Assembly: GCA_964436545.1 (NCBI GenBank)
Contig: CAYTCJ010000006.1
Coordinates: 4,729 to 68,728 of the forward strand
DNA: 64,000 nt
Origin: an uncultured Candidatus Saccharibacteria bacterium
GTDB taxonomy: Bacteria > Patescibacteriota > Doudnabacteria > UBA920
Reading direction: 5' to 3'
Position 1 is the stretch's first letter. Each line of letters starts with the position of its first letter. The position numbers and the translations under genes are program-made. Below, one piece after another: positions 3,704 through 58,965 of this stretch. The notes beneath the pieces are model-generated. The model was given only the letters and a program-made list of their open reading frames with translations, did no database searches and was not told where the DNA came from.

Positions 3704-3712
3704 AAGAACAGC

Positions 3713-3790
3713 GTTTAGGCTTTAGCGTTTAGTAAGTAGCCAAAACTGTATAATATTCCGGCTAAACGCTACTTACTACTTACTAAATGC
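3713..3790. repeat. intergenic imperfect inverted repeat built from TAGTAAGTAG / CTACTTACTA and GCGTTTAG / CTAAACGC blocks
   Basis: Read directly; related GTAAGT/ACTTAC low-complexity blocks recur in other intergenic spacers. Confidence 0.5.
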
Positions 3791-4299: not shown

Positions 4300-4833
4300 T
4301 TATTTTAAAAATAACACAGCGTAATGATACCCATCGGCTTCTAAATCTTTCCCTTTTCTAAAGCCTGCTTTCATTAATACCATTTCCGCCATAGTTTGGT
4401 CAAGTCGGTTTTGCATAGGCGGACCAATGGGAGAAAGTTCCTTTTTCCATTCAATTACCACAATTTTCCCCCCGGTTTTAAGGATTCTATACGCATTCTT
4501 TAACAACATTTCTCTGCCTTGGCCAATTTCGTGCATAATATTACTTAACACCACCATATTAACGCTATCGGCTTCTATATCTAAAAGCGGTTTGGCTAAA
4601 TCCGCTCTTACCACTTTAATGTTTCTGTAACCATATTGGTTAGCAATAGAAATGGTGGCAGCGAGTTTACTCTCTTGCACATCTACAGCAATTACCGCAC
4701 CTTCCGGACCGGCTAATTGAGCCGAAGGCAAAACATAAAAGCCATTACCACAGCCGAGGTCAGCCACCACTTCCCCGCGCATGAGTCCGGTTTGGGCAAT
4801 GATTGAAGATGGGTTAATAAATTTTGTTAACAT
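4300..4833 (-). CDS. class I SAM-dependent methyltransferase
   Basis: Motif I VADLGCGNGFY and downstream methyltransferase fold motifs. Confidence 0.75.
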   Translation of the reverse strand: MLTKFINPSSIIAQTGLMRGEVVADLGCGNGFYVLPSAQLAGPEGAVIAVDVQESKLAATISIANQYGYRNIKVVRADLAKPLLDIEADSVNMVVLSNIMHEIGQGREMLLKNAYRILKTGGKIVVIEWKKELSPIGPPMQNRLDQTMAEMVLMKAGFRKGKDLEADGYHYAVLFLK

Positions 4834-5308: not shown

Positions 5309-6199
5309 CTAATTTATTTCTTGATACAGTTTTTGTATAGCAATAGCCTTGCTGTCATTTCCAATTTCCACTAGCACCCCATTAATACCCATAGCCCCAG
5401 TCTCTTCCAGTTCATTCACAAATTTGGCATTAGGATCTAAAAATTTTACTAAAGCGTTTTCAAATTTTACACCCAAAGCGCTGTCCCGACTGCCAGTCAT
5501 GCCCACATCACTAACATAAGCAGTGCCGTTCTTCATTATATGCGCATCGGCAGTAGCCACATGCGTATGCGTCCCTACCACCACCGACACTCTACCATCT
5601 ACATAAAAACCCAGAGTCTTTTTTTCACTGGTAGCTTCGGCGTGGAAATCTATAAATATTATATCACCTTTTTGCGCTTCGTTCTTAAGTAACTTATCCA
5701 CTTCCCAAAACGGATTACCCAGCTTCCCATCAAAAAACTTTTCACAAAATACCTGCCCGTGAAGGTTAATAACTAGGAATTGTTGATTTTTCATCCTCCC
5801 CTCGCCCTGCTCATCAAGGAAGGGGGAAGATTTTTTTCCCTCCCCTTGGTGGGGAGGGATAGGGAGGGGGGTCAAATTTTTACTAAACCTATAGTACCCA
5901 AACCCGGGAAAACTACCTTCCAAATTAGCCGGACGAATCAGTTTTGGGTATTGTTCAAAACTGACTTTGGCTAATTCCGCTTTATCGAAAATATGATTGC
6001 CGGAAGTAAAACAATCTACTCCTAAGCTGTCAATTTCCGCTAAGGTGGAAGGCGTAACCCCTTTCCCGTGCGCAAGATTTTCTACGTTGATAATGGTGAC
6101 GTCTGGCTGATATTTTTCTTTCCACATAGGCAAAACCTGGGCGAGAATGTTTCGTCCAGGTTTACCCACCACATCACCGATGAATAAGATTTTTGCCAT
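5309..6199 (-). CDS. TIGR00282/YmdB-like metallophosphoesterase with in-frame GC-hairpin insertion
   Basis: MAKILFIGDVVG...GNH...THTHV motifs; extra segment PLPIPPHQGEGKKSSPFLDEQGEG encoded by 5795-5871. Confidence 0.8.
   Translation of the reverse strand: MAKILFIGDVVGKPGRNILAQVLPMWKEKYQPDVTIINVENLAHGKGVTPSTLAEIDSLGVDCFTSGNHIFDKAELAKVSFEQYPKLIRPANLEGSFPGFGYYRFSKNLTPLPIPPHQGEGKKSSPFLDEQGEGRMKNQQFLVINLHGQVFCEKFFDGKLGNPFWEVDKLLKNEAQKGDIIFIDFHAEATSEKKTLGFYVDGRVSVVVGTHTHVATADAHIMKNGTAYVSDVGMTGSRDSALGVKFENALVKFLDPNAKFVNELEETGAMGINGVLVEIGNDSKAIAIQKLYQEIN
5795..5871. repeat. composite family-B GC hairpin element inside ymdB-like CDS (core CCCTCCCC-ttggt-GGGGAGGG at 5838-5858)
   Basis: rc of 5838-5871 is near-identical to intergenic element 587-618. 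Confidence 0.75.
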
Positions 6200-9853: not shown

Positions 9854-9923
9854 TGGATTATGAAGTATGAATTAAGAAGCAAGAATTATGAATAAGCAAA
9901 ACTTAATTCATAACTCACCCACT

Positions 9924-11007: not shown

Positions 11008-11769
11008 TTAAAAATTATTTTTTATTAAATCCGGACGTCTTTTTGCCGTTCGCTTTACCGATTCTGCCTTTCGCCAAGCTTCAATGTTTTTGTGATGCCC
11101 GGTAAGCAAAACCTTTGGTACCGGTAAAATTTTATAATTTTTAATTTTTAATTTTTTCTCTGATCCTGCCTTGCCAACAGGCACTGTCCACTTCTCTGGC
11201 TTGGTATACTGTGGGTATTCTAATCCGCCGTCAGAAAAAGATTCCTTAACCGCTGACTCATCTTTTCCTAAAATTCCTTTACGAAGTCTCATGACCGCTT
11301 CGCTAATGACCAAAGCCGGCAATTCTCCCCCCATGAGCACATAATCACCAATACTGATTTCTTCATCCACAAATTTTCTAATTCTTTCATCGAACCCCTC
11401 ATACCGGCCACAAACCAAAACTAACTCATCATATTTTGCCAGTCTGTGAGCATCTTTTTGATGAAACTTTTTCCCTTGCGGAGTTAATAAAATAATTCTT
11501 TGTTTCTTTCTGTTTACTGACTGCTGTTTACTGACTGCTGATGTAACTGCTTTCAAAAGGACATCGGCCCTCAGCACCATTCCCACCCCGCCACCATAGG
11601 GCCTGCCATCTACTGTGCCTCTGGTATCCAAACCGAATTTTCTTAAATTAATCGCTTGGACGCCTAACAGCTTCAGTTGGATAGCTCGGCGCACAATGCC
11701 AAAATTTTCCACAAAATCTTCTACAAACTTGGGAAATAAGGTGATTATTTTTATAGAAAGTTTTTTCAT
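11008..11769 (-). CDS. trmD: tRNA (guanine37-N1)-methyltransferase TrmD
   Basis: SPOUT/TrmD motifs (GRYEG.DER, GGELPA); contains an exact 14-bp tandem duplication at 11514-11541. Confidence 0.9.
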   Translation of the reverse strand: MKKLSIKIITLFPKFVEDFVENFGIVRRAIQLKLLGVQAINLRKFGLDTRGTVDGRPYGGGVGMVLRADVLLKAVTSAVSKQQSVNRKKQRIILLTPQGKKFHQKDAHRLAKYDELVLVCGRYEGFDERIRKFVDEEISIGDYVLMGGELPALVISEAVMRLRKGILGKDESAVKESFSDGGLEYPQYTKPEKWTVPVGKAGSEKKLKIKNYKILPVPKVLLTGHHKNIEAWRKAESVKRTAKRRPDLIKNNF

Positions 11770-16185: not shown

Positions 16186-16225
16186 TTATATTTTTTGATT
16201 TGTTTAGTAGTTTAGTCTTTAGAGT

Positions 16226-16918
16226 TTAGATATTAAGCTTCGTGAGTGCATCTTCCGCAGCGGAAATTTCCGCCTCTTGTTTTGAAGGCCCACTACCCCG
16301 CCCAACTTCCGTATTGCCCACAAACGCGGCTAACACAAAAGTTTTATTATGGTCCGGACCGGTTTCACTAATTACCCCATAATGGGGAGTAATTCCGCTT
16401 TTTTCTTGCACTAATTCTTGCAAACGGGATTTCGGGTCCATATATTTTCCATCTTCAATAATATTATCCAATTCCACTAAAATTTCTCTGGCAATAAAAT
16501 TAGTGCAGGTTTGATATCCGCTATCCAAATACATTGCCCCAATTACCGCTTCAATGCAATTGGCTAAAATTACTTGTCTCGCACGGCCCACATCTTTGGC
16601 TTCACCTCTGGACATTTGTAAAAATTTTTCAAACCCCAAACGACTGGCAATTAAAGACAACATTTTATAGTTTACCAAAGCACTTCTAAAATTGGTCAGC
16701 TCGCCTTCGGGGTGACTGTAATTTTTATACAAATACTCGGTGGCACACAATTCCAAAACCGCATCCCCTAAAAATTCCAGTCGCTCATTATGAGGCAAAT
16801 GAAAACTTCGGTTCTCGTTCAAATAAGACCGATGAGTAAACGCGGAAATAAAAAAGTCCAAGTTATTGATTTTAGTTTGAAGAATGGTTTCTAATTCTTC
16901 TTTATTGATTTTAGGCAC
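16226..16918 (-). CDS. rnc: ribonuclease III
   Basis: ERLEFLGDAVLEL RNase III signature plus C-terminal dsRBD. Confidence 0.9.
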   Translation of the reverse strand: MPKINKEELETILQTKINNLDFFISAFTHRSYLNENRSFHLPHNERLEFLGDAVLELCATEYLYKNYSHPEGELTNFRSALVNYKMLSLIASRLGFEKFLQMSRGEAKDVGRARQVILANCIEAVIGAMYLDSGYQTCTNFIAREILVELDNIIEDGKYMDPKSRLQELVQEKSGITPHYGVISETGPDHNKTFVLAAFVGNTEVGRGSGPSKQEAEISAAEDALTKLNI

Positions 16919-19273: not shown

Positions 19274-19439
19274 ACTTTAAATAAATTATGTGTCTGATGA
19301 TTATATAAAACTTCTTGTTTTTAATCAATAGCAATTAAACTGAGTTGTAAGTAGTAAGTGAGTAAGTTGTAAGTTTAAAAAATACCCTTGTCTGTTCTCC
19401 AACTTCAAGTAAAAAACAATCTTATACTTCAACTCCCAA

Positions 19440-27884: not shown

Positions 27885-28319
27885 TTATGTCGATTTTGTC
27901 ATTTCCGTCGTTTTTGTCATTAATGAATAAACTAACAAAATTAAAATTCCTAAAATAATGTATCCATCGGCTAAATTAAAAACCCCATTAAAAAGATAAA
28001 TCCAATCTCTAACATAACCCAAAAATAATCTTTCCCCTACGTTAGACAGTCCGCCGGCCAAAATCAAACCCCATGCAATTGTTTCGCCAATGCGAAACTT
28101 AAAATAATTTTGCAAGATATAAACCGTCATAACACTCATTACCAAAAAATAAATTACATACATTAAACTTGTCGGCACCGGCAAACTAAAAGCAAACTGA
28201 TAATTTTTAAACTGATCGGGTGTCCAATGTTTGGTAATTTGATCCAATAAAATTAAACTAAAAAAAACACCCAACCCAGTTAAAAAAACTTTGGGTTTAG
28301 GTATTTGATTATTTCTCAT
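27885..28319 (-). CDS. lspA: lipoprotein signal peptidase II
   Basis: 4 TM helices; VRDWIYLFNG..FNLAD signature. Confidence 0.8.
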   Translation of the reverse strand: MRNNQIPKPKVFLTGLGVFFSLILLDQITKHWTPDQFKNYQFAFSLPVPTSLMYVIYFLVMSVMTVYILQNYFKFRIGETIAWGLILAGGLSNVGERLFLGYVRDWIYLFNGVFNLADGYIILGILILLVYSLMTKTTEMTKST

Positions 28320-28320
28320 T

Positions 28321-28378
28321 AGAAATTAGAAATTACTTGTCCCCCAAAGCCTTGGCGAAGGGGGAGAAATTAGAAATT
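28321..28378. repeat. GC hairpin TCCCCC-aaagccttggcgaa-GGGGGA (28340-28366) flanked by 14-bp direct repeats AGAAATTAGAAATT
   Basis: Direct repeats at 28321-28334 and 28365-28378 read directly; looks like a target-site duplication around a small inserted hairpin. Confidence 0.55.
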
Positions 28379-39526: not shown

Positions 39527-40360
39527 TTATCGATATTGATTAATTTCATCTCGGAGTTTTTTTGCTTCTTCTTGAGGGTTATTTGCAAAAATTATCCCGC
39601 GGGAGGAGTTAATAATCATGCCTAATTTTTGTGAATTGATGCCCGCTTTAACCACCGCTTCTACATCTCCACCTTGGGCGCCCACTCCCGGCACTAACAA
39701 AGTCATATCACCCACTATTGCCCGAACCACCTTCATTTCCTCAGGGTAAGTGGCGCCCACCACCAGCATACAATTGTGGTTATAATTCCAGTCTTGGGAT
39801 ACTTTTTCTGCCACCATTTGCCAAATGGATTTCACCCCTCCCTTACCCTCCCCATCTAGGGGAGGGAACGGCACACAAAGATCTTGCAATTCTCCGGCTC
39901 CGGGATTAGAAGTCCGACAGAGAATAATCGATGCTTTATCTGCCCTGTCTAAAAATGGTTTTAAGGCTTCTTTGCCTAAGTACGGATGTAAAGTAATCGC
40001 ATCAAAACCCATTTCATCAAATACCGCTTTCACATAACCTAAATTAGTATTGCCAATATCCGCCCGTTTGGCATCACATATGGTTAAAACATCCGGATAT
40101 TTATTCTGCAAATAATTTATGGTCATTTTTAACTCTTTTAAACCCTGTTCACCTCTGGCTTCATAAAATGCCATGTTGGGCTTAAAGGCAGAAACAAATT
40201 CTACAGTCTCATCTATTATCCATTTATTAAACTCAAACTGAGGAAACTCTTTGGCTTTAAAATCGGCAGGAATTTTTTCAAACTCACTATCTAAACCCAC
40301 ACACACTAAAGAATTAACTTTTTTGGCTCTTAAATTATATTTTTCAATATTTTGATGCAT
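39527..40360 (-). CDS. pyrF: orotidine 5'-phosphate decarboxylase (long type) with in-frame GC-hairpin insertion
   Basis: LVCVGLDSE, MAFYEA motifs; inserted PFPPLDGEGKGG encoded by 39834-39866. Confidence 0.85.
   Translation of the reverse strand: MHQNIEKYNLRAKKVNSLVCVGLDSEFEKIPADFKAKEFPQFEFNKWIIDETVEFVSAFKPNMAFYEARGEQGLKELKMTINYLQNKYPDVLTICDAKRADIGNTNLGYVKAVFDEMGFDAITLHPYLGKEALKPFLDRADKASIILCRTSNPGAGELQDLCVPFPPLDGEGKGGVKSIWQMVAEKVSQDWNYNHNCMLVVGATYPEEMKVVRAIVGDMTLLVPGVGAQGGDVEAVVKAGINSQKLGMIINSSRGIIFANNPQEEAKKLRDEINQYR
39834..39866. repeat. family-B element CCCCTCCCTTACCCTCCCC-atcta-GGGGAGGG, 33 bp, in-frame in pyrF
   Basis: Near-identical to 587-618; length divisible by 3. Confidence 0.8.
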
Positions 40361-42770: not shown

Positions 42771-43961
42771 CTATAATTTATTAGATTTAAACTTAGATCC
42801 ATTTAAATTACTCAAAACGCTAGATTCAAAATACCGATTAGCTTGTCTGGTTTGTTGATGTTTTTCCTGAGCCAACTTAATTAAGCTATTCAACAATTCC
42901 GGTAAATCCACTCCGCTAGCTTGCCATAAATGATGATAAAGCGTACCGGGCAAAGGATTCACTTCGTTAGCAAAAAATTCTTGAGTTTGTCGGTTAATTA
43001 AAAAATCCACTCTGGCAATCCCGCTACACTCTAATAATTTATAAACCGCAATGGCTGTCTGTTTAATTTTTTCCGTCATTGCCTCACTTACCCTTGCAGG
43101 GATAACCACGCTCCTTTGGCTTTTGCCGGTTTGCGCCCCGCCATCGGTTAAATATTTATCTTCAAAGCTAAACAAATCCATACTATATAAAGACTCCTGA
43201 AGCTCCGAGGGTTTAACCTCCCTATTACCCATTAAACAACAAGTAACATCCATTAAATTTTCCACCACCTCCTCTACGACCACTTTTTCATCGTAATAAA
43301 AAGCTACTTCTAATTTTTGAACCAATTGCTGTTCGTCTTTCGCCTTACCAATCCCAATAGACGAACCCAAATGCGCCGGCTTCACCATAAGTGGAAACTT
43401 TAATGATTGGCTGATTTTCTGATGCACTGCTTGCTGATGTGTTTGCCAGTCATGTTTATTAAAATACACAAATTTAGTCGTGGGAATTCCGGCATCTCGC
43501 ATTAAAATTTTGGTCAAAGCTTTATCCATAGCAATGGCCGAGGCTGGCACCCCACAACCTACATACGGCACCCCTAACATTTCCAACATGCCTTGTATGG
43601 TGCCATCTTCCCCGTATGTTCCATGAAACGCCGGAAACGCCAAATCAATGGTAATGGTTTTTCCCAAGATGCCTTTTTTCTTAAACACCAACTTACCCAG
43701 AGACTCTTGCATATCCAAATAATATTCCGCGTATTGAGAATTTTCTTCAACTTTATTATTCGGATCCGCAAACATTTTTAAATTTCCCAATTCCTCCCCG
43801 AGCATCCATTTTCCGGCTTTGGAAATATACACCGGAACTACCGAATAGTTTAACCCCTTAAGGCCACCAATAATTAACTGGGCGGTAATTATGGAAATAT
43901 CATGTTCCACACTTCCGGAGCCAAAAAACACACCAATATTTTTGAATGAATTATGAGTCAT
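42771..43961 (-). CDS. ddl: D-alanine--D-alanine ligase
   Basis: ATP-grasp motifs; N-terminal GVFFGSGSVEHDISI... Confidence 0.85.
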   Translation of the reverse strand: MTHNSFKNIGVFFGSGSVEHDISIITAQLIIGGLKGLNYSVVPVYISKAGKWMLGEELGNLKMFADPNNKVEENSQYAEYYLDMQESLGKLVFKKKGILGKTITIDLAFPAFHGTYGEDGTIQGMLEMLGVPYVGCGVPASAIAMDKALTKILMRDAGIPTTKFVYFNKHDWQTHQQAVHQKISQSLKFPLMVKPAHLGSSIGIGKAKDEQQLVQKLEVAFYYDEKVVVEEVVENLMDVTCCLMGNREVKPSELQESLYSMDLFSFEDKYLTDGGAQTGKSQRSVVIPARVSEAMTEKIKQTAIAVYKLLECSGIARVDFLINRQTQEFFANEVNPLPGTLYHHLWQASGVDLPELLNSLIKLAQEKHQQTRQANRYFESSVLSNLNGSKFKSNKL

Positions 43962-44020: not shown

Positions 44021-45835
44021 TTATATATACTGGTCGCCCCAATCGTTTTGAAACAAAATAACATCATTCGGCTGTAAAAGATTTTTTAATTCCGCATGAG
44101 CTTGTTCTGCACTATTAAACCATATAATAATTGGTAAGTTGTAAGTTGTAAGTTGTAAGTTCTCTCTCTTGCTTAATTCATAATTCTTAATTCCTAATTC
44201 TATGTATCCAGTTACGCTATTCCTAATAAGTATAACCACATCTGCCACCTTTGCCAACTGCTTGCCAATCTCTAAATGGACTGTTTTTACTTCACTCCCT
44301 GTTTCCACCAACCCCGGAGTAATATAAATTTTTCTTCGGTTAGGAAACTGAGCCAAAGTTTTTATGGCTTCTTTGACCCCAACTGAATTCCCATTATACG
44401 CATCATCAATCACCAAAATATTTCCCGGTCTTAAAATAGGTTCTAAACGATGCTTCACAGGTTGAATTTTTTCTATACCTTGTTTGATTGCTTCGTTACT
44501 CATACCCAACTCTCTCGCTATGCTTATAGCGCAGTCCACATCTCCAAGTGCATACTCTCCAAGTAATTTTACAAAAATTTTCACTCCCTTTCCTTCTTCT
44601 CCTGAATTAAAGTTTCCTCTTTCTCCTTCTTCTCCTGAATTAAAGTCTCCTCTTTCTCCTTCCCGCCGTGAATTAGAGCTTTCTCTTTCTCCTTCTTTTT
44701 CTGAATTAAAGTTTCCTCTTTCTCTTTCTTCTCCTGAATTAGAGCTTTCTCTTTCTCCTTCCCCTCCTATATTAGTGTTGCCCCTCGCTTCTTCCCCCCC
44801 TATATTAGGGGGGGTTAGGGGGGGTATTTCCAATTCCCAACCTAATCTCACTGCATCAAACTTTGCATGTTTGATATTTGATATTTGATATTTGATATTT
44901 TTTTGCTTGGGTAAAATATAATTTTGATAATTCTCCACAACATTTTCATCGTCCCCATTTAATAAACAGAGTGCATCCGCTTTGGCATTTTGCACAATTT
45001 CAAAAATGGTTTGCGTAACTGCTTTTATACTGCCCATTCTTTCCAAATGCGCTTCGCTAATCCCTGTCACTACCGCCATATCCGGTTTCACCAAACTGCA
45101 AATGGCTTTTATGTCGCCTTTGTAGTGCTCCCCCATTTCGATAATAGCAATTTCAATATTTTCTTCTCCCTTTAGGGGAGAAGGTGCCTGCGGGGCAGAT
45201 GAGGGGTTGGGGGCATTAAAATTTTTCAACACCCACCTCGCTATCCCGACCGGCGTATTCACACTCTCCGGTGTGGCAAACACCTGAAACCTCAAACCCA
45301 AAACCGCTTTCAAAACTTCCTTCATAGTCGTCTTACCATAACTTCCGGCAATCCCAATAATCGACAGCTCTTTACGGGCTGTCGCCCCGGGCGAGTGCAT
45401 CCGAGACCCGAGATCCGGTGCCACAGTCAAACTTTGAATTTTTGATTTAGCCTTATAAATAATTACCTGTTTTAATAACCAATCCACTGGCCATAAAATT
45501 ACTATCCCGATTAAATAAAAAATAAAAAATAAAAAATAAAAAATTAACAAATAAACAAACCCTAAAAACCATAATTCATAATTCTTAATTCCTAATTCTG
45601 GCAAGCGGTCTAAAAACTTCCAGAAAATTAACCATGGCAGAGTTAGATAAAGCCCGATTGCCAATAACAAAATTAGGGTCGCTTTTCCTGTCCAGACTAA
45701 ACTCTTTCTCATGGGCGCCTTGGGTGGAAAATACCCTTTTTGCCGGAGTAACTTTAAATACCGTCCCAGCTCGTAATTTTCCAGCTGTAAAAGATAAAGT
45801 TGATATTTAATGATTTTTATAAGATTTACTAACAT
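44021..45835 (-). CDS. Mur ligase family protein (MurF-like by ddl adjacency) with atypical N-terminal TM extension, internal 13-aa tandem repeats and GC-hairpin insertions
   Basis: GIAGSYGKTTMKE P-loop, Mur ligase middle and C domains; N-terminal 150 aa hydrophobic; true start uncertain. Confidence 0.65.
   Translation of the reverse strand: MLVNLIKIIKYQLYLLQLENYELGRYLKLLRQKGYFPPKAPMRKSLVWTGKATLILLLAIGLYLTLPWLIFWKFLDRLPELGIKNYELWFLGFVYLLIFYFLFFIFYLIGIVILWPVDWLLKQVIIYKAKSKIQSLTVAPDLGSRMHSPGATARKELSIIGIAGSYGKTTMKEVLKAVLGLRFQVFATPESVNTPVGIARWVLKNFNAPNPSSAPQAPSPLKGEENIEIAIIEMGEHYKGDIKAICSLVKPDMAVVTGISEAHLERMGSIKAVTQTIFEIVQNAKADALCLLNGDDENVVENYQNYILPKQKNIKYQISNIKHAKFDAVRLGWELEIPPLTPPNIGGEEARGNTNIGGEGERESSNSGEERERGNFNSEKEGERESSNSRREGERGDFNSGEEGERGNFNSGEEGKGVKIFVKLLGEYALGDVDCAISIARELGMSNEAIKQGIEKIQPVKHRLEPILRPGNILVIDDAYNGNSVGVKEAIKTLAQFPNRRKIYITPGLVETGSEVKTVHLEIGKQLAKVADVVILIRNSVTGYIELGIKNYELSKRENLQLTTYNLPIIIWFNSAEQAHAELKNLLQPNDVILFQNDWGDQYI
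44105..44132. repeat. GTAAGTT x4 tandem heptamer inside the Mur ligase 3' region
   Basis: Read directly. Confidence 0.7.
44172..44203. repeat. 28-bp direct repeat TAATTCATAATTCTTAATTCCTAATTCT, copy 1 (copy 2 at 45568-45598); both inside the Mur ligase ORF, both encode LGIKNYEL
   Basis: Exact 28-mer identity read directly. Confidence 0.85.
44581..44830. repeat. about five tandem ~39-bp repeats encoding 13-aa GE(E/R)G.R..(N/S)(F/S)NS units, followed by C7/G7 hairpin CCCCCCCTATATTAGGGGGGG
   Basis: Read directly; in-frame in Mur ligase. Confidence 0.8.
45163..45183. repeat. family-B-like hairpin CTTCTCCC-ttta-GGGGAGAAG in-frame in Mur ligase (encodes SPLKGEE)
   Basis: 8-bp stem. Confidence 0.6.
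45568..45598. repeat. 28-bp direct repeat copy 2 (see 44172-44203)
   Basis: Exact identity. Confidence 0.85.
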
Positions 45836-45871: not shown

Positions 45872-46801
45872 CTAAATAAATTTAGCTAAAATTTTTACAA
45901 ACTCCTCAGGCTGATCCAAAAAACTATAATGTCCGGCATTCTTTAAAATTAGCAATTGGGAATTGGGAATTAAAAAATTCATTCGCTTCCCAAAAGCAAT
46001 TGGCGTATCCTTGTCGTCCTCGCCGGTAATTATCAAAGTTGGGATTGTAATATCCTTCATATCCTTACTTAAATCTTCGTTCACCACTTTTAAAAAAGTT
46101 TCCTTTAACGCGGGTAGAGCTAAATAATCTTCTGCCCCCAGGCTATGATAAATTTTTTTTCTCAAACCTTGCATGAATCCCGGTTTAAAAATCGGTTTAA
46201 TAATTTTAGCCACAACGCCCATTAAATTTTTTTTCCAGGCTGATGTAACAAACCCAGCGCTATCAACTAAAACCAATTTTAATATCACCCCCTGTCCCCC
46301 TCTTATTTTAAGAGGGGGGAACGGATTCGGGAGATTTGACATAGCGCACAGCTTAATTCCTACCCGCCCACCAAAACTGTGCCCCACTATAATGACATTT
46401 TTTAATGCCAACTTTTCTATAAACGCTTTGACAATTTCCGCGTAATCCCCCACACTCATTCCGTATTTTATTTCCTCTCCCTTGTGGGGAGGGTTAGAGC
46501 CTGCCCTGAGCGATAGCCGAATGGGGAGGGGGGAATCTCCAAACCCCGGCAAATCCAAAGCATAAATTGTGTACTGCTGATTTACTGACTGGCTAATTAA
46601 CTTACTAACTTCCCCCCACACTTCCTTACTACTCCCCCAACCATGCAAAAACAACAAACACTTATCGCCTGTCGATTGTGTGCCTACATAACTAATTAAT
46701 TGGTTATTGATAATTATTTGATTTTTTTCCATAAACATATAATACATTGCCCAATAGCTATTTACAATATATAATATCCAAGTAAAAATGGAATGTAGCA
46801 T
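45872..46801 (-). CDS. alpha/beta-hydrolase-fold protein with two in-frame GC-hairpin insertions
   Basis: HGWGSS, GHSFGG nucleophile elbow, C-terminal GHYSF; insertions at 46287-46324 and 46474-46540. Confidence 0.75.
   Translation of the reverse strand: MLHSIFTWILYIVNSYWAMYYMFMEKNQIIINNQLISYVGTQSTGDKCLLFLHGWGSSKEVWGEVSKLISQSVNQQYTIYALDLPGFGDSPLPIRLSLRAGSNPPHKGEEIKYGMSVGDYAEIVKAFIEKLALKNVIIVGHSFGGRVGIKLCAMSNLPNPFPPLKIRGGQGVILKLVLVDSAGFVTSAWKKNLMGVVAKIIKPIFKPGFMQGLRKKIYHSLGAEDYLALPALKETFLKVVNEDLSKDMKDITIPTLIITGEDDKDTPIAFGKRMNFLIPNSQLLILKNAGHYSFLDQPEEFVKILAKFI
46287..46324. repeat. GC hairpin CCCCCTCTT-atttt-AAGAGGGGGG in-frame in hydrolase (encodes NPFPPLKIRGGQG)
   Basis: 9-bp stem. Confidence 0.7.
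46474..46540. repeat. composite GC hairpins CCTCTCCC-ttgt-GGGGAGGG ... GGGGAGGGGGG in-frame in hydrolase (encodes ...NPPHKGEEI...)
   Basis: Read directly. Confidence 0.65.
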
Positions 46802-48732: not shown

Positions 48733-50214
48733 ATGATTATATCTAAAAGAATTAATCTAATTAATCTCTGCCGAATATTTTTTTTATTATTTCTATTCTC
48801 AATCTTTTTTCCTATTCGTTATGTCTTCCCTACCTCGGAAAGCTATATTACTGGGCTTTATTCAGACTTTACTACTTTTTCCTTATATTTAAGCGATATA
48901 TTCTTATTTATTGCTTTTTTCTTTATTTTGTGGTATAATTATAAATATTTTATTGAATTCATTGTTAATTGTAAATTGCTAGTTGCTTTATGGATTTGGC
49001 TTATATTAGCCATTTTTATTTTTAATCCGCATATCTCAGGTTTAAATTTTTGGTCATTTTTTAAGTTTTTTGAACTCATTGTTGTTGCATATGGAACAAT
49101 TAAGGCAATTTTCAATTATCAATTTTCAATTTCGAAATCTTGGTTTTTAGGCATGTTCATATTATTAGGCACGGTTCAATCAATAATTGGGCTAATGCAA
49201 TTTCTTAAACAAGCGCCAATTGGCCTAAGTAAATTAGGAGAGCAACAAATTTACCCTTATTTAAGCGGAGTAGCCAAAATAGTTTCAGGTGGAACAATCT
49301 ATATTCGTGCCTATGGCACCTTTCCTCATCCTAATATTTTGAGTGTTTTTTTGTTAGTTGCAATATTTTTGCTTATTCATCTTTCGTTAAATCAGCAAAA
49401 ACCTAATTTAACAAGCAACTTATTCTCTAAGCACTACTCTCTCATCACTAAAATTATCCTTAATTTAGCGCTTTTTATAAATATCCTTGGTTTGACTGTC
49501 ACTTTTTCACGTGGAGCATTCTTAGCTTTAGGGTTAGGATTATTGGTATTTTTTGGACTACTGGCTTATTGGCTCAAAAAGCCTGTCATTCTGAACTCGT
49601 TTCAGAACCTAGATTCCAGATCGGTCCGCCCACTGGCAGACAGCATGACAAAAAACCTAAAAGTAGTTGCCATTAATATACTTTTAGCTTTAGCTGTGGC
49701 ATTTTTAATTTTCAAACCTTTTCTCCTTTCACGTGCCACAATTTCCGATCAAGCTACAATAGAAAGAAAAATTTACAACCAAACAGCCAGAAACATGATT
49801 AAAGCTAATCCGGTTATTGGCAAGGGAGCAGGGGAGAGTCTGCTTCATATGGAACAATATAGCCCAGTTAAACTAAAACCGTGGCAAATTCAGCCGATTC
49901 ATAACTATTTTTTGCTATCTGCCTCAGAGATTGGAATATTTGGGTCTCTAATTTTAATTTTGGTATTTCTCTCTCATCTGTTTGGAATTTGGAATTTAAA
50001 AATTTGGGATTTATTTAAAAATTGGAAATTAGAAATTAGAAATTTAAAAACCAGCTTTTACCGCCTAACTCTTTTTACCATCTTAATATGTTTTATAATA
50101 TTAATGCTCTTTGACCATTACTTTTATACCATTCAATCTACCCAAATGCTCTTATGGATGACTTTGGGAATAATTGCATCCACAAAAGAAAATGAAATTA
50201 ATCAAAATCCTTGA
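48733..50214 (+). CDS. O-antigen ligase/polymerase-like (Wzy_C) polytopic membrane protein
   Basis: About 12 TM helices, periplasmic loop with SRGAF.ALGLG motif. Confidence 0.6.
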   Translation: MIISKRINLINLCRIFFLLFLFSIFFPIRYVFPTSESYITGLYSDFTTFSLYLSDIFLFIAFFFILWYNYKYFIEFIVNCKLLVALWIWLILAIFIFNPHISGLNFWSFFKFFELIVVAYGTIKAIFNYQFSISKSWFLGMFILLGTVQSIIGLMQFLKQAPIGLSKLGEQQIYPYLSGVAKIVSGGTIYIRAYGTFPHPNILSVFLLVAIFLLIHLSLNQQKPNLTSNLFSKHYSLITKIILNLALFINILGLTVTFSRGAFLALGLGLLVFFGLLAYWLKKPVILNSFQNLDSRSVRPLADSMTKNLKVVAINILLALAVAFLIFKPFLLSRATISDQATIERKIYNQTARNMIKANPVIGKGAGESLLHMEQYSPVKLKPWQIQPIHNYFLLSASEIGIFGSLILILVFLSHLFGIWNLKIWDLFKNWKLEIRNLKTSFYRLTLFTILICFIILMLFDHYFYTIQSTQMLLWMTLGIIASTKENEINQNP

Positions 50215-57441: not shown

Positions 57442-58965
57442 TTAATTAACATCTACCACTAATTCAATTTCCGCGCCTAACTGTTTTAACCGGCTGGCTA
57501 AATCTTCGTAACCTCGGTTAATGGAATAAACATTTCTTAAAATCGATTCACCCTGAGCCGAAAGCATACCAATGAGAATTATAGCCGCTGGCCTTAAAGC
57601 CGGAGGACACACCATATCTGCTCCTTTTAGTTCAGTTTTACCGTCTACATACACTCGGTGAGGATCGGCTAAAATAATTTTCGCTCTCAACTTATTTAAT
57701 TCCGTATAGTAGATAGCTCGGTTTTCATACACCCAATCGTGAATCAAAGTTTGGCCTTGGCTTTGCGTGGCTATGGGCACAAAAAATGGCAAGTTATCTA
57801 TATTAATACCCAAATTAGAGGGTAGAGGATGAAGTTTCTCTTCTAAAGCCACAAGCTTAGAGGGCAAAGTTTGTATATCCACTAAATTCATCCAACCATT
57901 GGTGGATTTATAGGTCTTTAACACTTTATATTTAAAGCCCATTTTTTCCAGTTTGAGTAATTCTAAACGTAAAAAATCTATGGGACATCCTTCTATAACC
58001 ATACCGGAATGAGTGGTAATGGCAATCGATAAAAACATCATGGCTTCAATGGGATCTTCGCCAATATTATATTCCACTCGCTTATTTATTTCCCTGACTC
58101 CTCTAATTTTTAGCGTTTGACTGCCCAATCCTTCTATTTTTACACCCAATTTTATTAAGAACTGGCATAAATCTTGGACCATATAATTAGCCGAGGCTAA
58201 TTGAATGGTAGTTTCGCCCACAATTTTGGAGGCCGTAATTAATGCGTTCTCCGTAACCGTATCGCCGGTTTCATAAAGCACTATGTCTGCAGGGTGTAAC
58301 TCCTTAGCCGTAATTTTATACTCATCATGAATGGTTTGAATCTTTACACCTAATTTTTCCAAAGCAAACATATGGGGCCTAACTGTTCTCGCTCCCAATT
58401 TACAACCACCGCTTAACGGCCAAGAAAAAGTTTTAAATAAATGCGCCAAAGGCCCAATCATCATTAAGGCAGCTCTGGTTTTAGTGACGGCTAATCGGTC
58501 AACTTTTTTTGGATCTAAAGTTTCGCATTTAATTTCCAAATCATTCGGCCCGAGCCAATTAACCTCTGCTCCCAAACTGGTTAACACCTCTATCATTCTA
58601 AACACTTCTTCAATTTTGGGCACACCCCGCAAAATGGTTTTGCCCGCATTTAACAAACTCGCGGACATAATGGCAATCGCGGAATTTTTTGAAGCATTGA
58701 CCTTAATATTACCGTGTAATTTTTTACCCCCCTGGATTTTAAAATTCAGTGCTTGCCCGCCTAAGGTGATGATTTCACGGTTTAAAACTTTACTCAGCTT
58801 TAACAGTAAGGCCGTAGAAAAATTTTGTTCGCCCTTTTCCATTCTAGCCACGGCCGATTGGCTGGTTTTTAGTCGTTTGGCAAATTCTTGTTGTGTCCAA
58901 GCCTTTTGTTCCCGCAAACTACTAATTAATTGGGCTAACTTCAAGTTTTTAGTCTTTATTTCCAT
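57442..58965 (-). CDS. murA: UDP-N-acetylglucosamine 1-carboxyvinyltransferase MurA with N-terminal XRE-type HTH domain fusion
   Basis: HTH LAQLISSLREQKAWTQQEFAKRLKTSQSAVARMEKGE; MurA body NIKVNASKNSAIAIMSASLL with active-site Cys in SGGCKLGARTV. Confidence 0.85.
   Translation of the reverse strand: MEIKTKNLKLAQLISSLREQKAWTQQEFAKRLKTSQSAVARMEKGEQNFSTALLLKLSKVLNREIITLGGQALNFKIQGGKKLHGNIKVNASKNSAIAIMSASLLNAGKTILRGVPKIEEVFRMIEVLTSLGAEVNWLGPNDLEIKCETLDPKKVDRLAVTKTRAALMMIGPLAHLFKTFSWPLSGGCKLGARTVRPHMFALEKLGVKIQTIHDEYKITAKELHPADIVLYETGDTVTENALITASKIVGETTIQLASANYMVQDLCQFLIKLGVKIEGLGSQTLKIRGVREINKRVEYNIGEDPIEAMMFLSIAITTHSGMVIEGCPIDFLRLELLKLEKMGFKYKVLKTYKSTNGWMNLVDIQTLPSKLVALEEKLHPLPSNLGINIDNLPFFVPIATQSQGQTLIHDWVYENRAIYYTELNKLRAKIILADPHRVYVDGKTELKGADMVCPPALRPAAIILIGMLSAQGESILRNVYSINRGYEDLASRLKQLGAEIELVVDVN

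Follow-up and report, generated by a model that had tools for sequence, protein, structure and literature searches.

Heptanucleotide arrays at conserved coding positions of a murF-type gene in Patescibacteria, and a 28-bp repeat pair that is probably their by-product

Two exact copies of a 28-bp sequence lie in direct orientation towards the two ends of one Mur ligase gene on contig CAYTCJ010000006.1 (GCA_964436545.1), from an uncultured Candidatus Saccharibacteria bacterium (Patescibacteriota; Doudnabacteria; UBA920). The question raised by this locus is what such a pair, and the other tandem repeats beside it, are doing inside the gene of a core cell-wall enzyme. A sequence-only reading of the same DNA had taken the pair as a configuration for recombinational deletion or duplication of the catalytic region. 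We analysed the whole stretch of 64,000 nucleotides in which the gene lies (contig positions 4,729 to 68,728; here called the window, whose own numbering is used throughout). Our analysis showed that the 28-mer is one of a class of heptanucleotide arrays found in this gene and its orthologs. We consider it probable, though well short of certain, that these arrays result from slippage-type heptamer homogenisation filtered by protein function, and that the 28-bp pair is a by-product of it and not a recombination device. The gene in question is the following.

44021..45835, minus strand: murF-type Mur ligase coding sequence, 604 aa (open reading frame (ORF), Pfam domains, TIGR01143 and PDB matches)

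The 28-mer, TAATTCATAATTCTTAATTCCTAATTCT, occurs at 44174–44201 and 45572–45599. The two copies are 1398 nt apart and in frame, and both are read as (E)LGIKNYEL, as the sequence-only reading had it; the exactness of the repeat also stands, while the limits given there (44172–44203 and 45568–45598) were off by a few bases. These were the only two matches in the window even with three mismatches allowed, where 0 were expected. The 28-mer is itself a heptamer array, (TAATTCN)×4, or (GAATTAN)×4 on the sense strand, a feature that the sequence-only reading had missed.

Such arrays are a general feature of the orthologous genes. Seventeen orthologs were aligned first (A1), followed by 52 more from species-representative genomes. 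Tandem Repeats Finder (TRF) applied to 55 murF coding sequences gave 104 rows with period 7, and no more than 22 for any other period. After de-duplication, 101 period-7 arrays were left, distributed over 33 genes among 53 aligned orthologs, as against 15.4 arrays (maximum 19) when synonymous codons were shuffled with the proteins kept and 1.4 when codon order was shuffled. The periodicity of the arrays is a property of the DNA beyond that of the protein sequence. A typical array has about 28–37 nt and 4–5 units. The density of arrays per kb was 0.81 in murF, compared with 0.12 for the remaining coding sequences of these loci and 0.18 for intergenic DNA, and many of the arrays outside murF abut it.

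All but about three of the 101 arrays map to six alignment sites, A to F, whose bounds in residues of the window protein are aa 78–97 (A), 87–114 (B), 129–160 (C), 177–188 (D), 311–326 (E) and 545–570 (F). Site A is the loop between the first and second transmembrane segments (TM1 and TM2), B is TM2, C the linker before the ATPase domain, D the strand after the P-loop helix, E a beta-hairpin and F a loop of the C-domain. For sites D and E the AlphaFold model predicts structured elements with confidence. Column identity was 0.13–0.25 at sites A, B and E and 0.35–0.42 at C, D and F, with a gene mean of 0.46. Relaxed constraint fits A, B and E only, and was rejected as a full account of site choice. 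The 20 array-free orthologs come from more distant clades. No lag-7 excess was found in them at the six sites, and a native 7-nt periodicity acting as universal seed at these sites was therefore also rejected.

The window gene possesses five heptanucleotide arrays, including both 28-mers.

44174..44201, minus strand: 28-mer copy 1, (GAATTAN)×4, ELGIKNYEL, site F (ortholog arrays in L027, L013, L002 and L001)
45572..45599, minus strand: 28-mer copy 2, (A)GAATTA-G/A/T ×4, ELGIKNYEL, site A (repeat scan, site map)
45513..45555, minus strand: imperfect array AAATAAA (sense TTTATTT) ×6, LLIFYFLFFIFYL, site B, in the second hydrophobic segment (TRF)
44870..44900, minus strand: perfect array TTTGATA (sense AAATATC) ×4.4, KNIKYQISNIK, site E, in a predicted beta-hairpin (TRF)
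44134..44161, minus strand: perfect array GTAAGTT (sense AACTTAC) ×4.0, NLQLTTYNLP, second array of site F (TRF)

The last of these is the GTAAGTT ×4 microsatellite already noticed in the sequence-only reading; its AACTTAC unit recurs in ortholog L002, and AACTACC or ACTACCC is found instead in L020, L025 and L031. The columns of site E carry AAATTTC and other units in the orthologs. Four of the five stringent lag-7 segments of the window lie within murF, and none was found in SMC, FtsK, FtsH, IF-2, RNase Y or the other large genes of the window. In L001, a contig about 97% identical over 1.2 kb that begins at about aa 170 and so leaves site A outside the comparison, all three comparable heptamer arrays were identical and without copy-number change in this single comparison.

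Two properties of the arrays bear most directly on their origin. One is that they leave segment length unchanged at the three sites tested. The median segment length with and without an array was 19 and 18 aa at site C, 19 and 19 aa at site D, and 27 and 32 aa at site E, where the array-free close relatives L019, L020 and L032 also have 27 aa. Here the arrays stand in place of other sequence and are not additions to it. The replacement preserves key hydrophobic positions, as can be seen where KFQISNFKFQKF is aligned with EYKVSDLGDKIF. The other property is that their codons are frozen: in the AAATTTC array of site E, compared among nine species, codon identity at identical residues reached 0.92 within the array, against 0.47 for the gene outside it. 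The arrays also turn over, and proteins that are 76–81% identical have different units, or no array, at one and the same site.

The history of the 28-mer could be followed best at site F. The array there is common to orthologs of about 50% identity, reading GAATTAG GAATTAG GAATTAT GAATTAG in L027 and found in shorter or decayed versions in L013 and L002. Array-free relatives have native ATT GAA GAA GGA ATT AAA (IEEGIK) at this position, and arrayed relatives have GAATTAG GAATTA(A/G) GAATTAT GAATTA. The array can be derived from the native codons because GAA TTA GGA ATT holds GAATT twice, 7 nt apart. The alignment thus suggests that the site F 28-mer is probably the ancestral copy, grown from native I-E-E-G-I codons. 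Copy 2, which is specific to this lineage, sits in the loop between the two hydrophobic segments and is absent from the closest full-length relatives; the combined segment of sites A and B is the longest among all orthologs, with 41 aa against medians of 36–37. The site A copy would be either an ectopic copy of the site F array or a convergent array.

Exact 28-mers were also found in 26 metagenome contigs, in about 17 distinct contexts with unrelated flanks. In 14 of these contexts the 28-mer lies within a long ORF and is read as ELGIKNYEL, the sole stop-free frame; the genes include MurB, DprA, TsaD, MurT, ribonucleotide reductase, a family-2 glycosyltransferase (GT2) and an HhH-GPD glycosylase. 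Three dprA genes that have diverged, with flanks about 70% identical, agree in all 32 array bases. The remaining contexts are long non-coding (GAATTAG GAATTAA)n arrays. Three of these, in L066, L071 and L086, have a 14-nt super-period and are on contigs of 35–51% GC, so that the GAATTAR heptamer family is widespread beyond the window genome. The 28-mer as a dispersed repeat within one genome was rejected for the window, given its two copies in 64 kb with up to three mismatches. The possibility raised in the sequence-only reading, that the 28-bp repeat is a dispersed one with no special relation to this gene, is therefore borne out in part, by the roughly 17 unrelated metagenome contexts and not by the window, where it is confined to murF.

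On the reading which we favour, a slippage-type process with a preferred offset of 7 nt would copy one unit onto its neighbours, either through transient misalignment or through intra-array conversion. Local sequence would be sharpened in this way into arrays, which would then be kept homogeneous. Protein-level selection would admit only stop-free and structurally acceptable units, and the number of about 4.4 copies would simply be the length of the tolerant segment, some 10–11 codons. As three 7-nt units run through all three frames, each array encodes a 7-aa-periodic peptide. As every position of the unit is read in all three codon positions, no change of the unit is silent; and, with no silent change available, homogenisation together with purifying selection would freeze the DNA of the array.

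Several observations weigh against this reading. A native seed is documented for site F only, the array-free clades having no lag-7 excess at the six sites, and the step of slippage or templated homogenisation itself is one that we infer. Relaxed constraint fits sites A, B and E but not C, D and F (0.35–0.42), and TM1, the least conserved stretch, seldom carries arrays. Slippage accounts neither for the approximately 6-fold excess of arrays in murF over its neighbours nor for the way in which they spill over into the end of the gene upstream and into the spacer downstream. The G/A/T pattern of the imperfect arrays, which is kept across species, fits selection on the nucleic acid equally well. 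With regard to the GC-rich inserts described below, no other copies occur in the window.

The spill-over in the window itself is represented by one array in the gene preceding murF.

45954..45971, minus strand: AATTCCC-type (AATTGGG) array ×2.6, IPNSQLLIL, at the 3′ end of an alpha/beta-hydrolase gene (TRF)

At other murF loci, the upstream genes have TAATTCN or AATTCCN arrays just upstream of murF. Period-7 arrays occur elsewhere in the window as well. The Wzy_C (O-antigen ligase-like) ORF at 48733–50214 on the plus strand has three, at 49106, 49981 and 50015, and TrmD (11008–11769, minus strand) has one at 11128 (KLKIKNYKI). Intergenic ones lie directly upstream of start codons at 1814–1832, 3710–3732, 9857–9893, 16202–16230, 19343–19375 and 28318–28335; that at 19343, upstream of ftsH, has GTAAGTN, the unit family of the murF array at 44134.

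An alternative is that the arrays are functional as nucleic acid and are selected at the level of DNA or RNA, perhaps as binding sites of a single-strand-binding or cold-shock-type protein, or as unstructured mRNA that tunes translation or membrane targeting of the murF-ddl transcript. We regard this as rather unlikely, although a number of results agree with it. Synonymous sites are frozen (0.92 versus 0.47, and 32 of 32 nt in the three dprA genes), array positions are conserved over many species, and the arrays cluster round the murF locus, where they extend to the 3′ end of the gene upstream and to the spacer that follows the stop codon. No RNA structure was predicted for the arrays, with fold energies near 0, and several intergenic arrays of the window lie right upstream of start codons. 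There is also a precedent in CspB, which, in the account given in PMC4679880, binds heptamer direct repeats with one protein per heptamer. However, the units differ between species at one site, even at 79–81% protein identity, and share no motif. Frozen synonymous sites are equally expected from homogenisation, and like arrays are found in unrelated genes. It is similarly doubtful, in our view, that a mechanism or selective need of a Patescibacteria clade writes and maintains heptamer arrays at fixed coding positions, with the murF neighbourhood as its main target and with the arrays as functional elements or products of a dedicated templating activity. A functional reading keeps some weight because the murF excess, and the choice of sites C, D and F and not TM1, are unexplained.

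Another alternative is that the repeats are footprints of small mobile elements, of the kind of MITEs (miniature transposable elements with inverted repeats) or Rickettsia palindromic elements (RPEs), which insert in frame, with the 28-mer as a horizontally spread cassette. The exact 28-mer with its sharp borders in about 17 unrelated contexts is in agreement with this. But heptamer arrays leave segment length unchanged at sites C, D and E, the array of site F can be derived from native codons, 28 nt is not a multiple of 3, and the GAT pattern is predicted by stop-codon avoidance together with AT bias. As an explanation of the repeats in general we consider it improbable. A reasonable case can be made for it with the GC-rich inserts only, and these form a class of their own.

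The alignment of 17 orthologs revealed three GC-rich segments of the window protein, aa 138–158 (insert b), 207–228 (insert c) and 336–414 (insert d), that have no counterpart in most orthologs.

45362..45424, minus strand: GC-rich insert b, aa 138–158, TVAPDLGSRMHSPGATARKE, 60% GC, not in orthologs (alignment)
45152..45217, minus strand: GC-rich insert c, aa 207–228, APNPSSAPQAPSPLKGEEN, with an 8-bp hairpin CUUCUCCC/GGGAGAAG (alignment, fold)
44794..44830, minus strand: C7/C7/G7 hairpin element opening insert d, IPPLTPPNIGGEEA (repeat and hairpin scans, fold)
44591..44793, minus strand: 33-bp (11-aa) tandem array, 5.4 clean copies and two degenerate founder units (TRF)

Of the three, insert c has a significant hairpin (fold z-score −3.85), and its presence varies: some orthologs have it, P0004 has it doubled and most are without it. 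The fold energy of insert b is unexceptional (z −0.2). The C7/G7 hairpin described in the sequence-only reading is present in insert d as C7-TATATTA-G7 at 44794–44814, with a second G7 at 44819–44825; the element has −27.7 kcal/mol but a z of only −1.4, and differs from L001 by 1 nt. Next to it lies the tandem array, which had been described as 39-bp (13-aa) repeats. TRF gave instead a period of 33 bp (11 aa), with 5.4 copies at 44591–44768 and the consensus G-E-E-G-E-R-G-N-F-N-S. The 11-aa units come to seven once the two degenerate first units are counted, and these founder units overlap the G-rich hairpin arm. In L001 the array is shorter by exactly 99 bp, or three units, and the rest is collinear, which is copy-number variation between strains of the kind that the sequence-only reading had suggested looking for. 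Regions with a predicted local distance difference test (pLDDT) below 50 in the AlphaFold model, aa 140–154, 209–224 and 342–414, coincide with the three inserts.

These three hairpin-type inserts would form a second layer of repeat DNA, situated in loops predicted to be disordered, and the G-rich arm of one of them would have expanded into the in-frame 33-bp array whose copy number varies between strains. The earlier idea that parts of the gene are derived from repeats holds in this sense, the inserts, the 33-bp array and the heptamer arrays being lacking in orthologs. RPEs are selfish DNA inserted in frame into protein-coding genes, and as a family they are multi-copy and recognisable. Inserts b, c and d resemble them as short DNA, with a significant hairpin fold in insert c, that is present or absent among orthologs and is translated as an extra surface peptide of a housekeeping enzyme. 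At these loops other orthologs have palindromic-element peptides of other kinds, such as SVIARSEATKQS...LAMT, and the window contains 18 GC-rich hairpins with a 7-bp stem, including a CCCTCCCC/GGGGAGGG family, compared with 0.95 in shuffles. In contrast to RPEs, each of inserts b, c and d is present only once in the 64-kb window, and the heptamer arrays are not palindromic. A blastn-short search of the three inserts against the window returned self matches only. That they are copies of a dispersed element was rejected within the window on this basis, and the label of mobile element is unjustified for them because no further copies were found there. The loops that carry them appear to be insertion-tolerant sites.

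In-frame palindromic inserts were observed in several other orthologs. L004 has a perfect 30-nt palindrome, TCCGCCAAAGGCGGATCCGCCTTTGGCGGA, at site E of murF. Others are found at site F in L003, L005, L007, L015, L016 and L043 and in L024 and L026, and in loop d in P0013 and P0014. Their peptides are of the types SVIARSEATKQS...SDALGLAMT and RRHSE...EILHPSEAFGVQDDA. Within the window, members of a dispersed family of hairpins of the C-run/G-run type CCCCTCCCTATCCCTCCCCATAAAGGGGAGGGAAC lie at 597–631, 5837–5870 (reverse complement) and 39846–39880, with further ones at 12–32, 217–239 and 46296–46318, several of them within ORFs. Positions 11–86 are a 40-bp tandem repeat ×1.9, with a TCTCCCCC/GGGGGAGA hairpin in each unit. 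The alpha/beta-hydrolase gene upstream of murF (45872–46801, minus strand) contains the hairpin at 46296–46318 and a 20-bp tandem repeat at 46600–46639.

Phase variation was also considered, in which the arrays would be contingency switches and the gain or loss of one 7-nt unit would reversibly frameshift murF or other envelope genes. The arrays are non-triplet repeats inside coding sequence and occur in further envelope genes (the Wzy_C ORF with three, GT2, MurB and MurT), and two orthologs, L048 and L057, are disrupted. Nevertheless, 53 of the 55 orthologous murF ORFs are intact, and neither disruption is a gain or loss of a unit. In L048 (3368–3460) there is a deletion between two 10-nt direct repeats, TTATTGGGAG (GYWE / LLGEY), and an intact murF copy, L008, is present in the same metagenome-assembled genome. 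In L057 (2909–2960) the change is an indel of 1 nt in GTGAAGTGAAGTG, immediately before site D, and could be a long-read error. Both frameshifts were rejected as evidence of heptamer slippage. Moreover, copy number is low at about 4–5 units, the three comparable arrays are identical in L001, segment length is exactly kept by arrays with different units, and MurF is a core peptidoglycan enzyme. All this makes such switching very improbable.

There is hardly more reason to accept the recombination device: the two copies are exact, direct and in frame, a length of 28 bp is close to the lower limit for homologous recombination and L048 has undergone a deletion between short direct repeats in another part of the gene, but the N-terminal copy is missing from the other full-length orthologs compared, so that the pair is no conserved design, the deletion product would be a 138-aa stub without the catalytic core, the immediate neighbours are ddl and a hydrolase with no recombinase noted nearby, and the 28-mer is a generic heptamer array of many unrelated genes. 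We found no sign that the pair is a device for the deletion or duplication that had been proposed; one member of the pair is the old array of site F. It is possible that the 28-mer copies are a substrate for accidental deletion. The L048 case indicates that accidental repeat-mediated deletion does occur in the murF family, as damage and not as design.

Heptamer repeats as such are known from bacteria. Heptanucleotide repeats rank as the most over-represented among long simple sequence repeats (SSRs) in many bacteria, and a polymerase-slippage bias towards 7 nt has been proposed as the cause (Mrazek et al. 2007, as cited in PMC4692102 and PMC4679880). The murF arrays resemble these long heptamer SSRs (Mrazek, Guo & Shah 2007) in being head-to-tail tandem heptamers that are over-represented relative to other periods. 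As far as those citing accounts describe them, however, the known ones lie mainly between genes and differ in length from strain to strain, whereas the murF arrays lie in frame in a core gene at positions fixed across species, keep segment length at the sites tested and have frozen codons. In coding regions, SSRs are as a rule suppressed in the interior of proteins (PMC3315296). A second likeness is to the STRR heptamers of cyanobacteria and the TAACTGA repeats of Beggiatoaceae, cyanobacteria and Bacteroidetes. These are direct repeats of 2–6 heptamer copies scattered through the genome, with one unit shared by unrelated lineages without an evident transfer mechanism and with some located just upstream of start codons (PMC4679880). 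TAACTGA, by contrast, contains stop codons, is intergenic and is the one favoured unit per genome (PMC4679880), while here there are many stop-free units, mostly in coding sequence.

Our literature search found nothing relevant on heptamer repeats in Patescibacteria, nor any description of in-frame, length-preserving, position-conserved and codon-frozen heptamer arrays in a core enzyme. Length-preserving in-frame arrays at conserved positions of a core enzyme, with frozen codons, look like a novel form of a repeat type already known. Essential genes are normally cleared of non-triplet microsatellites in their interior. In the present case a core cell-wall enzyme tolerates 7-nt arrays, which recur at six positions across dozens of species, encode a transmembrane helix and a beta-hairpin and show almost no synonymous drift. 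If slippage-type homogenisation is the cause, a mutational bias would be over-writing protein sequence in place and producing convergent peptides (ELGIKNYEL, KFQISNFKFQ) in unrelated proteins, with consequences for homology searches, dN/dS analyses and the annotation of Patescibacteria proteomes. Selection of the arrays as nucleic acid would instead mean a regulatory layer that is so far undescribed.

Pfam analysis of the 604-aa protein identified Mur_ligase_M (PF08245) at aa 162–318 (E 4.6e-22) and Mur_ligase_C (PF02875) at aa 462–595 (E 5.2e-10). The top NCBIfam model was TIGR01143 (murF), with 177.6 bits; this is below the curated cutoff of 288.6 because the match starts only at model position 72. 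MurE/F fusions and other MurF models ranked next. The top seven PDB matches were all MurF, the best chains being 1gg4 and 3zl8, with an alignable span of aa 157–546. These results uphold the earlier naming of the gene as a Mur ligase. Homologs carry names that put the organism in Patescibacteria, nearest to Candidatus Doudnabacteria. The P-loop and the downstream neighbour are as follows.

45326..45355, minus strand: P-loop GIAGSYGKTT, aa 161–170 (invariant columns in the alignment of 17 orthologs)
42771..43961, minus strand: ddl (D-Ala-D-Ala ligase, which supplies the MurF substrate), directly downstream of murF and without arrays

The order murF then ddl is also found in L002, and the ORF appears to be a working murF gene. 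It shares with canonical MurF (1gg4 of E. coli, 3zl8 of T. maritima) the central ATPase domain with a GxxGKT P-loop, the C-terminal Mur ligase domain and the pairing with ddl. It differs from them in having a module of about 155 aa with two hydrophobic segments in place of domain 1, and three extra inserts predicted to be disordered.

45371..45835, minus strand: conserved N-terminal membrane module, aa 1–155 (alignment, ortholog ORFs, phmmer, hydropathy, AF2 helices)

The hydrophobic segments are aa 45–75 (45611–45703) and aa 86–127 (45455–45580), according to hydropathy and AF2 helices. No match was found between the N-terminal ~155 aa and the N-terminal part of MurF models, and canonical domain 1 is not present. 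Ortholog alignments revealed an almost invariant YQLYLLQLENYEL motif within the module. Every full-length ortholog in the comparison has this motif and the membrane region; these orthologs belong to Doudna-, Magasanik-, Buchanan-, Jackson- and Berkelbacteria and CPR2. When aa 1–135 were searched by phmmer against 1.84 billion representatives, 79 proteins were obtained, always with an N-terminal match, and the full-length ones have 430–575 aa, that is, they are MurF-sized. The replacement of the MurF N-domain by hydrophobic residues, as first described, is therefore correct, but not the remodelling of the gene that had been concluded from it, since the orthologs share this N-terminal region. 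The module replaces MurF domain 1 as a trait of the subfamily and not by rearrangement of the window gene. No relevant description of the module was found in a literature search for transmembrane MurF. With a membrane anchor in this place, peptidoglycan precursor synthesis in these organisms may have its last cytoplasmic step tethered to the membrane.

Amide ligases of the CapB/PgsB type likewise combine the Mur ligase fold with an N-terminal membrane anchor, and the window protein is similar to them in this respect. Unlike them, it has its best profile and structure matches all with MurF and its gene is adjacent to ddl, no CapB-specific comparison having been made.

As to the surroundings of the gene, GC skew showed no change of sign near murF within the window, and a replication origin there was rejected for this reason. 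An Rfam scan of the window returned tRNAs only. Another ORF with a domain of cell-wall type lies at 57442–58965 on the minus strand; its product of 507 aa has an N-terminal HTH_3 domain and an EPSP_synthase/MurA-type domain.

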